Of a DNA stretch of 11,134 nucleotides, positions 1,134 to 11,015 are shown piece by piece; the stretch's first letter is position 1, and each line of letters opens with the position of its first letter. Source of the stretch: a virus. The stretch lies in the UHGV virus genome UHGV-1789692, one strand, 5' to 3'. Both the position numbers and the translations under genes were made by a program. The notes below the pieces were generated by a model, which did not search any database, was not told the origin of the DNA, and saw nothing but the letters and a program-made list of their open reading frames with translations.

Positions 1134-3548
1134 TTAATACAGGTTCCGCCACTGATCATCTTCCTGCAAACGCTGGTTCCGATAGAAGATACGCAGGCCT
1201 GCTCCTGACGGAATACTGCCTCCGCGAAGGAGTAAATCGACCTCTTTCTCGCTGCCATCAAATCCTCTGGACTTCAGCTCATACACGAGCTGCAGTCGCT
1301 GATGGTCTGTAATTCGCTGTTTGTAGTCTTTACGCCGTTTCGGTTTCACCAGGCGTAACCTTGCTGCCAGTTCCCGGCGCTCTTTTTTGCTCATACTGTG
1401 CAGGTAATCGTGCAACTCCTTGTCATCCATGCTGGTAATGTCCGTTCTGGGGTCCCCATCAGCTGATTTATCTTTCTCCTGTTGGTTCAAATTTTCAGCA
1501 AGGGGACAGTTATTGCCACGAGTCCAAGGGGCGCAAGCGCCCTGGTCGGCTGCCGCCTCCTGAACGTCAACGGCCTTACGAACCATTTTCCACTTCACGG
1601 CATGAGTGCAGATTTTGCCCTCTGCAATGGGTGACCAGATGCCATAAATACGAATGCCGTGATCGCCATAGGCGGTCGGCTCTTCGTTGATTTCATAAGC
1701 GGTTCTGATGAGGTGATATTTGCGGGGGACCAGTACGCCGCCCTGCTTCATGATGTAGGTGGCAAAACAACCAGCATCAGCTGCAGCCAGAATGGCATCA
1801 AGGCGCGGGTTATCCAGTACCGGCGCACCTGCTTTTTTGTCACCCTGTTGCCTTGCCGCCTGACCAGCCAGCAATCGCAGTTCACGGTAAGCCTGACGCC
1901 CCGGAATGCCAAAGAAGCGGAATTGCTGAACACGATGCAGAGACGCCCAGGCATTAACGTATTCAGCGTTATCACGCAGAGATTTACCCGTTTCCTTGCT
2001 GATCTCGCCAGCCAGACCACGCCCGTCAATGTTCTTACTGATGTATTTCGCGATGTAGCTAGTCGGCGTTCCTTTGCGCGGGTTTATCAGCTCAGACTTA
2101 AAGCGTGGCCCCGTGTTATTACCCAGCTCCTCGCGGTCTTCACGAATGGCAAACTTACGCAACAAAGCAGTAATGGTGCGGCGATCTTTTTTGCGCATAA
2201 AACACAACAGGTGCCAGTGAACTGTACCGTCATGATGCGGCTCAGCCACCCGCACGCCATACCAGCGCAATCCGGCTTTGTGCATCGCCTTACGAAATGC
2301 AGCAAACATGCCGACCAGATAATCACTGCTTTGTCTTACCGTCGTATTTGTCCAGGTCGGGTTGGGCCTGCCGTTATTTAGCGTGGAATGGAAACGTGAC
2401 GGACAGGTGATGGTGTAGAAAACGGCGCAGTCACCGCGCATTTCCGCGATAAGCTCCAGACCTTTAACACAGGCCATCATCTCATTGCGGCGATGCGCAG
2501 GGTTGCTGCAGCTGGCGTTTACCACATCCTCCATGTCCAGCGTGTCGCCGTCTTCGTTCACCAGTTCATGAGAACGGAAAAACTCCAGCGACTTACGGCG
2601 CTGCTCACGTTTATGCATCACGGCTTCATAGCTGACATAGGGAGATGCTTTTTTGCTGACCAGGCAAACAGCACGCAACTGCTCTTCCCGCCATTCGCAA
2701 CGCATCTTCCATAATTTCCGGTACCACCAATCGGCGCACAACATACGCGCCAGCGAACCCGGAATGAGTTCATAGGGCACGGGTTTACGGCGGTTTCTTT
2801 TCCGGCGGAGTTGCTCAAACGCAGGCGGTATGACATCCAGTCGCAGGGTTTCTGCTGCCACCTTTTCCCATGTCTTGCGGATTTCTTCTGGCTTAACGTC
2901 ATCGGTGGCATACAAATCGCCACAAGCTGCATCAAGGCACATGCTCATATGCGCAGCAACAAGGGTGGACAGGCGTTTCACCTGATCCTGACTCATTTCA
3001 GGCAGAATCAGCAGGCCGTCCAGCCCTTCATGGCTTGCCATAAAGCGAAAAGAAGTGGATAGCTGACTGTCGCGTACATGCTCCAGCCGTTCCAGACATG
3101 GCTTAATCGTCTCACGCAAATAGCGGGAATAAGCCTTTGGCCTGCCAAGGCTGCTGAAGTATTCAATACGTTGCATCAGCGGCCTGCTGATATGGGAAGG
3201 CTGGGCGTTAACGTCTGCCAGAATGACCATGTCCGGGTTAAAACGCTGCTGCTCATGCGCCAACTTTGCCCGGCTAATGAGCTTATCCTGCTCCATTTCG
3301 CGCTGGACAGGATCACGGGATTCATTAAAGAAATAACGCTCCCAAACCTGATCACTCAGTGCCTCGCGGCGCAGTTGTTCCTGCTCGTTATCGGCAGCGT
3401 ACAGAGTGATCAGGTTTGAAAGCGCAGAAACCGGCGCAACTTCCGCCGGGTCCAGATAAGGGTTAATAGCCTTTTTCGGGCTGTTCCATGAGAATGCTGC
3501 GGCGGCCTCGTTAAAGCCGCTGCAGTTGTTCATATCAGCATGGCTCAT
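1134..3548 (-). CDS. Rolling-circle replication initiator of the phage P2 gpA family (804 aa)
   Basis: Large ORF with ATG at 3548; contains an HUH motif ([10 protein letters not shown]) followed by a paired-tyrosine active-site motif ([13 protein letters not shown]-x-x-K-Y as in phiX174/P2 A proteins). Sits downstream of the immunity and early genes as in P2/186. Its start overlaps the Dam stop (ATGA). Confidence 0.85.
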
Positions 3549-4402
3549 GCACGCACTCCGTACACGGCAGAACTATCCACGCCACGCGAAGGATCAAATC
3601 CCACCCAGCAGCGCGCCCCAGAAACAGCGATGATTTCTGTTGCAGATTTACTCTCGCCAGCCGACACGCCGATGCTGCGTTTTGCCTTGATGTAGTGGTG
3701 AGTGAAATTTCGATACAGCGAACGGATCAGGGATGTGTCACTGTTAGAAACAATGACTGGATGACCTTCTGATGATCGATATTCAAGAACAGATGCCAGG
3801 TGATACTGGTCATCTTCAGTGAAGCCGTCAGTGTGATAGCCGGAAAACGTACCGTCATAAGGCGGATCGCAATACACCACATCCCCCACCTGCAGCATCG
3901 CCAGCGTTTCATCAAAGCTGGCGCAGATAAACGTTGCTCGCTGGGCTTTCTCTGCAAATGCGCGAATTTCTTTTTCAGGGAAATACGGATTTTTATAATT
4001 ACCGTATGGAATGTTGAAATGCCCGCTCTTGTTATAACGACATAACCCACGGTAACCATGACGATTGAGATACAGGAAATATACCGCTTTCATGAAATCA
4101 GTAATTTCAGTGGAGTAATTAAACTCCTGCCTTATGTTGTAATAAGCCAACTCCCTGTTTGCTTCCTCAAATAAAGCTCTGGCACGAGATATAAACGCCT
4201 CGCAATCAGCAGCAACCTTTTTATAGAGGTTGATTAAATCAGGATTAATATCCGCAACAAGATAGCTGGGGTAATCCGTCTCCATCATCACAGCACAGGA
4301 ACCCGCGAAAGGTTCAACCAGTCGCGGGCCAGCAGGAAGATGTTTTTTCAGTTCGGACATAATGGCAGTTTTATTACCCGCCCATTTCAGGATGGTACTC
4401 AT
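3545..4402 (-). CDS. dam: Dam-like N6-adenine DNA methyltransferase (probably GATC-specific), 285 aa
   Basis: ATG at 4402 preceded by GGAGGTG; N-terminus [23 protein letters not shown]...[11 protein letters not shown]...[13 protein letters not shown] matches the Dam signature (KWAGGK, VEPF.G.G, ADIN.DLI); catalytic DPPY is present (VYCDPPYDG), as is [15 protein letters not shown] (Dam: LYLNRYGYNGLCRYN). The 309-aa track ORF is an upstream extension. Confidence 0.9.
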
Positions 4403-4701
4403 ACAGCACCTCCTGCAATAACATATCCTAAAGCTTCTAATGGGGTTAATGGGCGAATTGATAGCATCACCCATTGTTCTGAAACTGCCATGACGTCATT
4501 AACCGGAAGCACATGAGAGATAACAGCGGCCCATTCCCTACCCGTAAATACGCCATGCTTCCATTCGCAAAGAGAAAGAACATCACCAACTTTATAGCCA
4601 CGATCGTCTTTACGAAGTTCAGCCGTCTTTTGACCTGCAACCACAGCGTTGAAATACTTAGGTGCAATTTTTAATTGATGGATACGCACTGCCCTTGTCA
4701 T
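4399..4701 (-). CDS. DUF3850 / ASCH-like (PUA-fold) protein, 100 aa
   Basis: ATG at 4701 preceded by GGAGGTG; N-terminal [33 protein letters not shown] resembles the DUF3850 pattern (H.LK..P.YF.AV..G.KT.E.R..DR....GD). Stop overlaps the Dam start (ATGA). Confidence 0.55.
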
Positions 4702-5988: not shown

Positions 5989-6498
5989 TCACAGCAAACC
6001 GAATGAAGCACCGAGGCCAGTCACGGTATCAACTGCACTCACCATCGCAGGATTAGCCTGTAAACGGGCCTGCAATGAAACAGCCGCCAGCGCCATCAGT
6101 CGTGTTACAGAGTTAATGCTGCTGATAGCATCACGACGACCGGCACTAGTTTTTACATCACCAGATACCGCACCTGCTGCAACACGCCCGATCTCTGCAG
6201 TTGCGCTCATGACGTAATGCGGCAGTTTCTCTTTTGCCACCTCATTAATCGGTACACATGGCAGACAATGAATCTGTGCCAGAAAACCATCTACCAGCGT
6301 TGAATCTTCAGTCAGATCGGTAAGCAGCCAGATTTCTGGTGCGGTTAATAAATGAGGCTGAGCTGGGTTCAGCTTGTTCCGCAGAATCTGCACATTCATG
6401 TCTGCACGTTCTGCCAGTTGCACCAGGTTGTGACGCAGTGCAAAAGCCCTACAGGCTTCATCGAAATGCGGATGTTTGGAAATCTTGTAATCAAACAT
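5989..6498 (-). CDS. cII: Phage 186 CII-like regulatory protein (169 aa)
   Basis: ATG at 6498 with AGGGGG 6 nt upstream; second gene after the Apl/Cox-like gene in the lytic operon; the length matches 186 CII as recalled; N-terminal region is HTH-like. Assignment by position, size and recalled family, not by alignment. Confidence 0.55.
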
Positions 6499-6530
6499 GG
6501 TGCCCCCTTAGAAAGTTCCCATAATTGAAC

Positions 6531-6773
6531 TTACTTACCAACAATGACGCGGAAGTTGGAATGACCGAGGGATTCACGGACCTGATCAGTTTTGTACATC
6601 AGATAACGAAGGCTTACGCGGCCTTTATTTTTTTCTTTCTTGACCATGTACTTAGCAAGTTGACCATGGTGAATTTTTTGGTAAACAGAGCCACGGGAAA
6701 TGCCCTCCCACTCTGCGAACTCTGCAGGCGTAGCCATCTCTTTTGGTACACGAATTGAAATATCAGTACTCAT
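6531..6773 (-). CDS. Apl/Cox-like small HTH excisionase and transcriptional regulator (80 aa)
   Basis: First gene of the leftward lytic operon, divergent from the CI-like gene; small basic protein with an HTH-like segment (ATPAEFAEWEGISRGSVYQKIHHGQLAK). The RBS before the 6773 ATG is weak, so the start is uncertain. Confidence 0.55.
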   Translation of the reverse strand: MSTDISIRVPKEMATPAEFAEWEGISRGSVYQKIHHGQLAKYMVKKEKNKGRVSLRYLMYKTDQVRESLGHSNFRVIVGK

Positions 6774-6852
6774 AGTGCAGTATCTCTTACTTTGTGTGCG
6801 TGTTAGTTCGTTTTAGCTCGTCTCTTTAACTCTCACATCAAGAGACACGAAG

Positions 6853-6881
6853 ACATTACGATCTTGATTCAAGATTGTCAA
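6853..6881 (-). promoter_or_regulatory. Candidate lytic (pR-like) promoter: -35 TTGACA, 17-nt spacer, -10 TAATGT, reading toward the Apl/Cox-like gene
   Basis: On the minus strand: TTGACA (6881-6876), a 17-nt spacer, TAATGT (6858-6853). The spacer contains the operator palindrome listed next. Confidence 0.5.
6861..6875. promoter_or_regulatory. Candidate operator: perfect 15-bp palindrome ATCTTGATTCAAGAT
   Basis: Perfect inverted repeat ATCTTGA-T-TCAAGAT lying exactly in the spacer of the candidate lytic promoter. A second inverted repeat GTCTCTT ... AAGAGAC (6809-6815 / 6840-6846) is nearby. Confidence 0.5.
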
Positions 6882-6894
6882 ATGGAGATTACCA

Positions 6895-7527
6895 ATGTTA
6901 AACATCAGAATGGGTTCCGATACGGGAGGTAAGGCAGCTATTGAGAGGCTGCTTGAGGCTTATGGATTCACAACTAAGCAGGCATTAAGCGAGCACCTGA
7001 ATGTCTCAAAAAGTACTATGGCAAACAGAGTGTTACGTGACAGTTTTCCTGCTGACTGGATAATTCAGTGTGCACTAGAAACCGGTGTTTCGTTACTTTG
7101 GTTAGCCACTGGACAGGGAAGCATGAAAGAAGGATACGAGCCTGAGAAAAGATCTCATAACGAGAACAAACAAGCAATTAAACCGTTATCCAAACTCATA
7201 ACTCCATCTATTCCTAAAGGAACCTTGGAAAATGGACAACTCAGTATTGATGAAGAGATTTTCCTAGACCACAGCATATTACCTGCAGATTATGAAGAAT
7301 CGATGTTCTTAGAAACCCCTACTGATTGTTATCTCATCGATAAATCAGTTAAACAAGTCAGCAATGGATTCTGGCTTATCAATATTGATGGAATGATTAT
7401 TATTGCAAAAATCATGCGGATTCCCGGCAATAAGATTGTAGTAAATCAAGATGAAGCGTCTTTCGAGTGCTCTGCTGATGATGTGGAAGTTATTGGGCGT
7501 GCAGTCAAAGTAATAAAGAGTATCTAA
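6895..7527 (+). CDS. cI: CI-like immunity repressor, phage 186 type (210 aa)
   Basis: ATG at 6895 with GGAGA 7 nt upstream; N-terminal HTH (TTKQALSEHLNVSKSTMANRV) followed by the phage-repressor phrase LLWLATGQG; lies immediately upstream of and co-oriented with int, divergent from the Apl/CII operon, as in 186. Confidence 0.7.
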   Translation: MLNIRMGSDTGGKAAIERLLEAYGFTTKQALSEHLNVSKSTMANRVLRDSFPADWIIQCALETGVSLLWLATGQGSMKEGYEPEKRSHNENKQAIKPLSKLITPSIPKGTLENGQLSIDEEIFLDHSILPADYEESMFLETPTDCYLIDKSVKQVSNGFWLINIDGMIIIAKIMRIPGNKIVVNQDEASFECSADDVEVIGRAVKVIKSI

Positions 7528-8556: not shown

Positions 8557-9225
8557 ATGAATAGCGAACTAGAGTTACTTATAAAAATATTATTCCCTTC
8601 CCTATCTGCCATTATATCCTTATTAGGGCTTAAAACAGGGTGGACTTATAAAAAAGACAAACTATTCACATCACGTAAAAACATTAGCGAATTTTCATAT
8701 CAAATGTATAAAAGCAGTGAAGATCCGACCTTCAAAAAACTGGCGGAAGATTACGGCATTGCTGCATTAACCAAAGATAACACATTGACAAAAAAACAAA
8801 GATTAATATTACTCAACACAACAAACCCCGTTAGCGATATAGATGATTATTCCAAATGTCAAAGTCTAATTTCCATTACCACCCATAAAGAAATATTCGC
8901 ATGGAATAAAAAAAGATATAAATACAGCATATATCTGTCTCTTATACACATTATAACAACTCTAATTTACTTCATGGGCAGTCTCGTCGTAGCACTTCCT
9001 TTCAGTTATTCTGTTGTAGTAAGTGCTAAGATGATGGAGAAGATAAACCATCTAACTACTTGGCAATACTTTGGTTTAAGCAGCTATTTTGTGGTATCGG
9101 GAGTAGCAATATGCTTTATCTGCCTAGATAAGCTCTCCAAGATTAAGATCGCCGAGAGATTAATCGTTTCAAATAGGCGTTTAGGCGACAAATGCAGTGG
9201 CGGCACTTTGGCGGCAGAAAGTTAA
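8557..9225 (+). CDS. AT-rich cargo gene: 222-aa predicted multi-pass membrane protein of unknown function, between int and the att core
   Basis: ATG 11 nt after the int stop, same strand; visibly much more AT-rich than the flanking prophage genes; hydrophobic segments LIKILFPSLSAIISLLGL (N-terminal), YSIYLSLIHIITTLIYFMGSLVVALPF and YFGLSSYFVVSGVAICFICL separated by charged, K-rich soluble regions. No family recognised. Confidence 0.65.
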   Translation: MNSELELLIKILFPSLSAIISLLGLKTGWTYKKDKLFTSRKNISEFSYQMYKSSEDPTFKKLAEDYGIAALTKDNTLTKKQRLILLNTTNPVSDIDDYSKCQSLISITTHKEIFAWNKKRYKYSIYLSLIHIITTLIYFMGSLVVALPFSYSVVVSAKMMEKINHLTTWQYFGLSSYFVVSGVAICFICLDKLSKIKIAERLIVSNRRLGDKCSGGTLAAES

Positions 9226-9310
9226 AAACCCATAAAACGGACAGACACCGCATAAATCTAACCAACTGAAAATCAAAGCAAATCATTGTTTTTACAGACA
9301 TTGAAATGCT

Positions 9311-9355
9311 ATGTAGGAATTTCGGACGCGGGTTCAACTCCCGCCAGCTCCACCA
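9311..9355 (+). other. ssrA: 3'-terminal ~45 nt of ssrA (tmRNA): prophage attachment-site core, a partial duplicate and not a complete gene
   Basis: ATGTAGGAATTTCGGACGCGGGTTCAACTCCCGCCAGCTCCACCA matches the recalled 3' end of E. coli tmRNA (T-arm GCGGG-TTCAACT-CCCGC, acceptor 3' strand, discriminator A, CCA). Sequence upstream of 9311 does not continue the tmRNA, so only the 3' fragment is present. The exact left boundary is from memory. Confidence 0.75.
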
Positions 9356-9482
9356 ATCATGATTGGACGGTGTAAGGACTACACCAACAAAAACAGGAAG
9401 TTATAAGTCTCAGCAGGACACCGACCAGACGGTGAGGAGACAAAAAAGGATACGCAACGGAGTCGCGACTCCCTATGACATT

Positions 9483-9510
9483 AAAGCCCGCTGATGCGGG
9501 CTTTTTTATT
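9483..9510 (+). terminator. Rho-independent terminator downstream of the ssrA fragment
   Basis: Stem GCCCGC / GCGGGC (9486-9491 / 9496-9501) with loop TGAT, followed by TTTTTTATT. Confidence 0.65.

Positions 9511-9938: not shown

Positions 9939-11015
<1,077 letters not shown>

Follow-up and report, generated by a model that had tools for sequence, protein, structure and literature searches.

A candidate CI operator lies between the −35 and −10 hexamers of the predicted lytic promoter in a 186/Fels-2-type prophage switch

The 121-bp intergenic region at positions 6774–6894 of an 11,134-nucleotide stretch of the virus genome UHGV-1789692 (this whole stretch is hereafter the window) is, judged by the homology of the genes around it, the lysis–lysogeny switch of a 186/Fels-2-type prophage. 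Inside it, a perfect 15-bp palindrome lies in the spacer of the promoter that corresponds in position to the lytic promoter pR of phage 186. We put at roughly 80% the probability that the CI repressor binds this palindrome, occludes pR, and thereby indirectly sustains transcription of cI and int from a facing promoter, pL. Binding of CI at the palindrome is the best explanation of the arrangement because of the homology to 186 and because the format of the site recurs.

The region had been read in the earlier note as the immunity switch of a prophage, and the homology of CI, Apl, CII, and the integrase (Int) bears this out and places the prophage in the 186/Fels-2 type. An apl-like open reading frame on the minus strand borders the region on one side and cI, on the plus strand, on the other; cII lies downstream of the apl-like gene and an integrase gene downstream of cI, giving the order int-cI / apl-cII seen in 186. 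The three genes next to the switch are as follows.

5989–6498, minus strand: cII-like gene, CP76-type (Pfam PF06892, 1.8e-41)
6531–6773, minus strand: apl/cox-like gene, the first in the lytic operon, 80 aa
6895–7527, plus strand: cI repressor gene of the 186 CI family, 210 aa

The CI protein consists of a Phage_CI_repr domain (PF07022, 1.7e-30) and a Phage_CI_C domain (PF16452, 7.2e-31), and the Pfam search found no Peptidase_S24 domain in it. It aligns over residues 15–207, spanning both domains, with full-length 186 CI (PDB 2FJR, E 4.9e-27) and also matches 2FKD (1.3e-12). Full-length alignment of the Apl-like protein with 186 Apl gives 30% identity, and the protein matches the PHROG annotated as Cox-like excisionase and repressor (5e-28).

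The window is a Felsduovirus prophage of the RE-2010/ELPhiS/Cartapus immunity group, integrated at ssrA. Several E. coli chromosomes carry prophages with the identical DNA (100%), and the identity to Escherichia phage Cartapus and Salmonella phage RE-2010/ELPhiS, both Felsduovirus, is 97%; of the 5426 complete E. coli genomes in the set searched, 61 match this group at a query coverage of at least 80%, and Salmonella Enteritidis phage records match as well. From 9311 onward the sequence is that of the 3′ end of ssrA followed by host DNA, which gives the attachment site; ssrA is the integration site of Fels-2 and ELPhiS as well (PMC4454671). A perfect LexA box (1024–1039) stands upstream of a small open reading frame and a DinI-like gene, and induction probably proceeds through a LexA-controlled, Tum-like antirepressor encoded at 548–1082.

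The predicted lytic promoter and the palindrome within it comprise the following elements.

6881..6876, minus strand: −35 hexamer of the pR homologue, TTGACA, invariant in 35 group-A sequences
6858..6853, minus strand: −10 hexamer of the pR homologue, TAATGT, invariant in the same 35 sequences
6861–6875: perfect 15-bp palindrome ATCTTGATTCAAGAT (7+1+7), candidate primary CI operator

A TTGACA-17-TAATGT promoter reading toward the lytic (apl-cII) operon had been proposed from the letters alone, and its place and direction hold up, as it corresponds in position to the pR of 186, which is annotated from experiment. Both hexamers and the 17-bp spacer (6859–6875) are present as described, but TAATGT agrees with the TATAAT consensus at only three of six positions (T1, A2, and T6), which is why a consensus promoter/terminator scan missed pR. 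The scan called a weaker overlapping candidate, TTAACA-16-GACAAT (6901..6874), which we set aside, as it has no counterpart in the other CI groups or in the annotated 186 pR. Among 80 loci recovered by scanning IMG/VR with the CI protein (CI identity 46–100%), TTGAC(A/G)-17-TAnnnT occurs at the same position beside the start of cI in all CI groups examined despite differing spacer sequences, and thus forms a phylogenetic footprint for pR. Within group A, frequent polymorphisms fall at 6818, 6827, 6848, 6852, and 6890 and spare both hexamers, although this invariance is weak evidence of constraint because diversity in the group is low. Transcription from pR would start near 6846.

The palindrome ATCTTGATTCAAGAT was correctly placed in the pR spacer by the earlier note: it takes up 15 of the 17 spacer bases, abutting the −35 hexamer and stopping 2 bp short of the −10 hexamer, and it extends to a 21-bp near-palindrome (6858–6878) whose arms pair at 9 of 10 positions. 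Taken alone, it is only mildly unusual statistically: when the 121-bp region is shuffled with its dinucleotides preserved, 3.75% of the shuffles contain a perfect inverted repeat (arms of at least 7, loop of 0–3), and the six repeats of this kind in the whole window compare with an expectation of 3.3 ± 2.3. What gives the palindrome weight is its position, together with the comparisons. It is unchanged in 32 of the 35 group-A sequences and altered in three singletons (L016, L028, and L036), and natural variants keep its format, namely ATCTTGAGTCGAGAT and ATCACGATTCGAGAT, the latter with a symmetric T to C change at half-site position 5. In the sister groups represented by Fels-2/L037, L050, L065, and group E, the pR spacer contains no more than a half-site, so the full spacer palindrome is not a constant of the family.

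Comparison of operators among related prophages, which the earlier note had suggested as a check, gave a common format, ATCTY-N5-RAGAT (15 bp, scored out of 10, and partly derived post hoc), that recurs both family-wide and at a position equivalent to the distal operator FL of 186. With positions given as the centre of a site relative to the first base of the pR −35 hexamer, ATCTTGATTCAAGAT lies at +13 and scores 10/10. An unbiased count of 4-mers followed at a fixed distance by their reverse complement ranked TCTC-N5-GAGA first, in 8 of 12 representative switches, a count inflated by the kinship of the loci. The shorter core TCT-N7-AGA has only three matches in the 11 kb (6831–6843, 6862–6874, and 7153–7165), all within 335 bp of the switch. 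The first and last of these fall in two further sites of the same format.

6830–6844: weak operator-like site CTCTCACATCAAGAG, 8/10, at +44, its centre 31 bp from that of the palindrome
7152–7166: FL-like distal site ATCTCATAACGAGAA, 9/10, at −278, inside the codons of the cI linker

The nearer site covers about +3 to +17 of the predicted pR transcript (positional shuffle p ~0.03, post hoc), and the distal one lies 291 bp from the centre of the palindrome (positional shuffle p ~0.02, likewise post hoc). Equivalents of the distal site are found in L028, L036, and L065 at −277/−278 (in L065 at −277, 9/10). The best site of group E, which has only a half-site in its spacer, is at +46 and scores 9–10/10 (e.g., ATCTCGTTATGAGAT in L067). 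The two sites in the window are probably auxiliary CI sites that would add cooperativity or looping. Across the window as a whole the format is not enriched, with 3 sites scoring at least 9/10 against 1.5 expected and 16 scoring at least 8/10 against 16.7 expected; the third of the sites scoring at least 9/10, at 10015, falls in host DNA upstream of csiD. A search for flanking operators at ±21 bp, in the manner of 186, recognized none, the weak sites (8/10) being 14 bp and 31 bp away; this is a weak negative, as the flanking operators of 186 may belong to a sequence class that such a search would not recognize.

We therefore retain the palindrome as the likely operator, as first proposed: on sequence grounds it is the element most likely to bind CI, its format recurs, and 186 offers a parallel in the same place. 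The 186 record (NC_001317) places pR, TTTACT-17-TATATT, beside the start of cI and inside a 57-bp CI-binding region, and also annotates seven Apl sites between pR and pL, FL in cI, FR in the apl–cII interval, and the CII site at the beginning of cII. The 17-bp spacer of the 186 pR is ATCTCTCAATTGGGAGA, which together with the first T of the −10 hexamer forms the inverted repeat ATCTCTCAATTGGGAGAT.

In the mechanism that we propose, pR would drive apl, cII, and the replication genes, and a CI dimer on the 15-bp palindrome would cover the interval between −35 and −10 and keep RNA polymerase off pR. By homology to 186 CI, this dimer would probably belong to a larger oligomer assembled through the C-terminal domain. 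A weaker candidate promoter, pL, would transcribe cI and int through the same region, facing pR, so that silencing pR should relieve interference on pL and sustain cI expression. Such an effect is on record for 186, in which repression of the strong pR relieves interference on the convergent pL (PMC3675496).

The candidate pL and the remaining elements around the apl-like gene are as follows.

6755–6783, plus strand: candidate lysogenic promoter pL, TTGAAA-17-CAGTAT, facing pR
6790–6830, minus strand: candidate Apl (Cox-like) repeats, yTAAAAC-like, with a 10–11 bp period
6513–6532: FR-like inverted repeat AAGTTC-N8-GAACTT, lying after the apl stop and before the cII start, tentative
6472–6498: ATGTTTG-N13-CAAACAT, as at the 186 CII site/pE, in the first 27 bp of cII

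The −35 hexamer of the candidate pL lies 13 nt inside apl and its −10 hexamer 5 bp upstream of the apl ATG. The consensus promoter scanner did not call it; TTGAAA-17-CA(G/A)TAT is retained in groups A, C, and E. The −10 hexamers of pR and the candidate pL are 69 bp apart, and transcripts starting near 6846 (pR) and 6790 (pL), as predicted, would overlap by ~57 bp. As this layout matches pR/pL of 186, the switch is probably one of face-to-face promoters and not a simple divergent one: the cI and apl-like genes do diverge, as had been noted, but the promoter candidates converge. In P2-like phages, face-to-face promoters typically lie 40–60 bp apart with Apl/Cox sites in between (PMC7498355).

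The remainder of the spacer region appears, tentatively, to consist mostly of Apl-type direct repeats. On the minus strand, the stretch bounded by the two predicted starts contains GTTAAAG-(11)-CTAAAAC-(10)-CTAACAC-(10)-CACAAAG, a counterpart of the seven Apl direct repeats that 186 has between its two promoters (PMC7498355), and L037 (Fels-2 type) and L050, which have the same Apl and otherwise diverged DNA here, carry ATAAAAC/TTAAAC repeats with the same 10-bp period. ATAAAAC-like repeats are also found at 9222–9258, 50–90 bp from the att core. The assignment is tentative because the CTAAAAC-like motif is not enriched in the window (31 matches against 32 expected). The FR-like repeat ends 14 nt before the cII ATG. 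It travels with apl and cII rather than with cI and does not fit the 15-bp ATCTY-N5-RAGAT format, and we could not link it to CI.

The inverted repeat GTCTCTT-N13-AAGAGAC, also pointed out at the outset, is present and would span +1 to +27 of the predicted pR RNA, but is not significant by itself (shuffle test, p ~0.12).

6820–6826/6840–6846: second inverted repeat GTCTCTT-N13-AAGAGAC

It overlaps the weak operator-like site at 6830–6844. The pR RNA may fold here into a 5′ hairpin, the arms may be two ATCTC-like half-sites (GTCTC...GAGAC), both may hold, or the repeat may have arisen by chance. Differing inverted repeats occupy the same place in L037 (TGGTTTG-N11-CAAACCA) and L050 (AACTTCTAA-N9-TTAGAAGTT), with z −2.5 to −5.0 for the folded 40-nt 5′ ends in these groups. 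In the predicted pR RNA of the window, the first 40 nt fold as a hairpin from +1 (z −2.7), and L036, L037, L050, and L067 have hairpins of different sequence in the same place (first-40-nt z −2.2 to −5.0). A hairpin at pR +1 that diverges in sequence and is conserved in structure is a possible functional RNA element of the switch.

Three other explanations of the palindrome were weighed against binding by CI. One holds that it is a chance feature and that the true CI operators lie elsewhere, for example at 6820–6846 as in group E, or in a second sequence class. The shuffle frequency of 3.75%, the sister groups that lack a full spacer palindrome and have their best site at +46, and the recognition by 186 CI of two distinct operator classes (according to the title of a work cited in PMC3675496) all accord with it. 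We consider it improbable in view of the 10/10 match to a format that recurs family-wide and at the FL-equivalent position, the inverted repeat that 186 has in the same spacer within its mapped CI-binding region, and the retention of the palindrome through nearly all of group A, with format-preserving variants in the rest. That the inverted repeats serve as RNA structures, either in a cI leader transcribed from pL or as a 5′ hairpin stabilizing the pR transcript, strikes us as quite improbable. The minimum free energy fold of the pL leader does pair the palindrome, which as RNA would form a stem of 6 bp and a loop of 3 nt, the same-place hairpins at the start of the predicted pR RNA point the same way, and in group E the outer arms change compensatorily while the helix-turn-helix of CI is unchanged. 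Whole leaders, however, fold no better than shuffles (z −1.19 and +0.30), Rfam gave no family match at the gathering threshold or at E ≤ 1, and the start sites are only predicted. Placement of the palindrome between −35 and −10 has no rationale at the RNA level, and a hairpin role for the second repeat would be compatible with an operator role for the palindrome.

The palindrome might also be bound by a protein other than CI, either the Apl/Cox-like protein or a host factor such as IHF, which we regard as highly unlikely. Apl of 186 also represses pR, and its annotated sites start just past the −10 hexamer. The minus strand, AATCAAGATCGTA, partially matches, by eye, the IHF-like consensus WATCAANNNNTTR, but the match is incomplete. 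The window, L037, and L050 share the same Apl and differ in spacer sequence, so the palindrome goes with cI and not with apl. Apl and other recombination directionality factors, moreover, use direct repeats one helical turn apart (PMC7498355), whereas the spacer element is an inverted repeat.

The further claim that the palindrome defines the immunity specificity of the prophage was too strong. The recognition helix SKSTMANR(V/Y/M)LRD is nearly identical across CI groups that are only 47–60% identical overall, and the half-site ATCTC is common to these groups; 186 also has ATCTC...GAGAT, with 3 bp more between the half-sites. A single base separates the FL-like site of the window, TTCTCGTTATGAGAT, from ATCTCGTTATGAGAT, the leading operator candidate in group E. 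Since half-site and recognition helix are both shared, the palindrome alone probably does not set specificity, and operator architecture, together with the divergent linker and C-terminal domain, may be as important. A bolder version, which we hold to be possible but doubtful, is that specificity among Fels-2-like CI groups comes mainly from operator architecture (a full spacer palindrome in group A, a start-site operator in group E, and distal FL sites) and from the linker/C-terminal oligomerization domain, and not from base-specific recognition; if so, some "heteroimmune" prophages would cross-repress.

The switch reveals no new principle. For the RE-2010/ELPhiS/Cartapus immunity group, it is now possible to draw a map of promoters and operators that is open to experimental test and would aid the prediction of superinfection immunity and prophage inducibility; the analysis also describes a natural variant of the 186 "wheel" repressor, with different half-site spacing and an apparently different operator layout, that may be of use in comparative work and synthetic biology.

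Two other types of switch do not fit the locus. A P2-type C/Cox switch is ruled out by the 210-aa CI with 186-type domains, the inverted-repeat operator candidate, and the presence of cII; in P2 itself (PMC1904268 and PMC3448106), C is a small repressor of unrelated type with directly repeated operators, and there is no cII. A lambda-type CI/Cro switch, in which PR and PRM stand back to back over shared tripartite operators, CI carries an S24 autocleavage domain, and cro leads the lytic operon, is rejected on the grounds that CI carries Phage_CI_C and not S24, that the first lytic gene is of Cox/Apl type, and that the promoter candidates are convergent.

Close relatives are RE-2010 (ELPhiS) and Cartapus, which share 97% DNA identity with the window over cII-apl-switch-cI-int and have the same palindrome and promoter; the few bases that differ lie outside promoter and operator, and these phages belong to the same immunity group. 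The public records examined for this group carry no promoter or operator annotation of the switch. The literature searched, with the ELPhiS and primary 186 operator papers outside its scope, gave no description of operators of Fels-2-type CI, and the ELPhiS paper may already describe the operator. Fels-2 and SopEPhi have nearly the same apl, cII, pL region, and layout, an almost identical CI recognition helix, and a pR (TTGACG-17-TAATAT) in the same place. Their CI, however, is only ~60% identical, GTGAT is the sole half-site in a spacer that lacks the ATCT palindrome, TGGTTTG-N11-CAAACCA stands at the pR start, and they form a different immunity group.

The characterized switch of this type is that of phage 186 itself. 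Its CI has operators over pR, with FL and FR ~300 bp away assisting repression, and is modelled as a 14-mer wheel; an atomic force microscopy study notes that dimers on the wheel may bind segments more than two turns apart (PMC3675496). Induction in the 186 type runs through a LexA-controlled Tum antirepressor and not through autocleavage of CI; the C-terminal domain homology, the lack of Peptidase_S24 in CI, and the LexA box hint that wheel and induction may be alike in the window. The two switches differ in several respects. Outside the family-wide resemblance, the CI proteins are only slightly similar (helix-turn-helix SKSTMANRVLRD here and SSSLSNRYTRG in 186), and the operator is ATCTT-N5-AAGAT (15 bp) here as opposed to ATCTC-N8-GAGAT (18 bp) in 186. 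Where 186 has a trio of operators spaced by two helical turns, the window has one strong candidate and a weak site at 31 bp (~three turns). The Apl repeat motif is yTAAAAC here and TTGGCAA-like in 186, and the prophage sits at ssrA, whereas 186 uses tRNA-Ile.

The likenesses are as follows. CI, Apl, CII, and Int are homologous and in the same order; pR adjoins the start of cI and has, at the level of sequence, an inverted repeat in its 17-bp spacer; and the candidate pL is placed like that of 186, with the −35 hexamer 13 nt inside apl and 5 bp separating the −10 hexamer from the apl ATG; the −10 hexamers of the two promoters are 69 bp apart here and 76 bp apart in 186. The FL-like candidate site in the cI linker is 291 bp from the palindrome, and FL of 186 is ~306 bp from the pR operator. 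The annotated FR of 186 ends 14 nt before the cII ATG (13 nt with its flanking bases counted), and the FR-like repeat here also ends at 14 nt but differs in sequence, and the same ATGTTTG-N13-CAAACAT repeat is found at the start of cII. Both phages also have a LexA-box-controlled module with a DinI-like gene. On this combined evidence of homology and layout, the prophage is a newly mapped member of the well-studied 186-type switch.

A group of three features has a LexA box at its head:

1024–1039, perfect LexA box CTGTTTATATTTACAG, just upstream of the small ORF
792–980/1082, minus strand, small ORF, phrog_698 (function unknown)
548–781/853, minus strand, DinI-like gene, coming after the small phrog_698 ORF

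A split Tum-type SOS antirepressor module has been described for Fels-2 and PSP3 phages, and the box, small ORF, and DinI-like gene resemble it sufficiently to look like a module of the same type. If this reading of 548–1082 is true, an antirepressor rather than cleavage of CI would flip the switch.

Two candidate CI operators, the 15-bp palindrome in the spacer of pR and the FL-like site inside cI, are each overlapped by a GATC (Dam) site, and the window also contains a Dam-like gene:

6860–6863, GATC site, overlapping the −10-proximal edge of the palindrome
7151–7154, GATC site, overlapping the FL-like site
3545–4474, minus strand, Dam-like gene, whose counterpart in the matching E. coli record carries the annotation DNA adenine methylase

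Comparison of related loci placed a GATC directly upstream of the pR −10 in CI immunity groups A (that of the window), B, and C. It is conceivable that CI binding or pR activity is sensitive to methylation. In group E (L067, L068, L069, and L073), an extended palindrome of ~34 bp, such as CCACAAAAGATCTC-N5-GAGATCTTTTGTGG, lies on the minus strand ~40–75 nt upstream of cI and directly after the pR −10. Its outer arms show compensatory changes between loci (CACAAAA/TTTTGTG vs. CACGAA/TTCGTG) with the CI HTH unchanged, which hints at a structural (hairpin) constraint on top of the inner ATCTC-N5-GAGAT core.

Compared with genomes without the prophage, the window from 9311 on matches ssrA and downstream host DNA, the prophage/host boundary being occupied by a copy of the ssrA (tmRNA) 3′ end (9311–9355), which was called by neither ARAGORN nor Rfam because the 3′ part alone is present. 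Around this boundary, we noted the following:

8557–9225, plus strand, 222-aa ORF between int and the att site
9222–9258, ATAAAAC-like direct repeats (TTAAAAAC, ATAAAAC, ATAAATC) in 10-bp phase, between this ORF and the att core
9353–9366, perfect 14-bp palindrome CCAATCATGATTGG, in host DNA immediately beyond the ssrA copy
9459–9472, perfect 14-bp palindrome GGAGTCGCGACTCC, likewise
9486–9508, terminator-like hairpin GCCCGCTGATGCGGGC with a T-run after it, likewise

The ORF had no Pfam match but matches phrog_21256 (function unknown) over its full length; it probably represents a cargo gene (moron) of the prophage. The repeats agree with those lying between pR and pL, the candidate lysogenic promoter, and are possible Apl/excisionase sites. 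Further into the host DNA, ATCTCATAAGAGGAT (10015–10029) scores 9/10 against the operator format and is most likely a chance match; it lies near the prophage end, within the translation-initiation region of the host gene csiD (glaH), the start codon of which comes 9 bp downstream.

Two further inverted repeats lie around apl and cII:

6513–6532, FR-like AAGTTC-N8-GAACTT, between the apl stop and cII start
6472–6498, ATGTTTG-N13-CAAACAT, at the cII start

The latter has the same form as the CII binding site/pE region of 186 phage.
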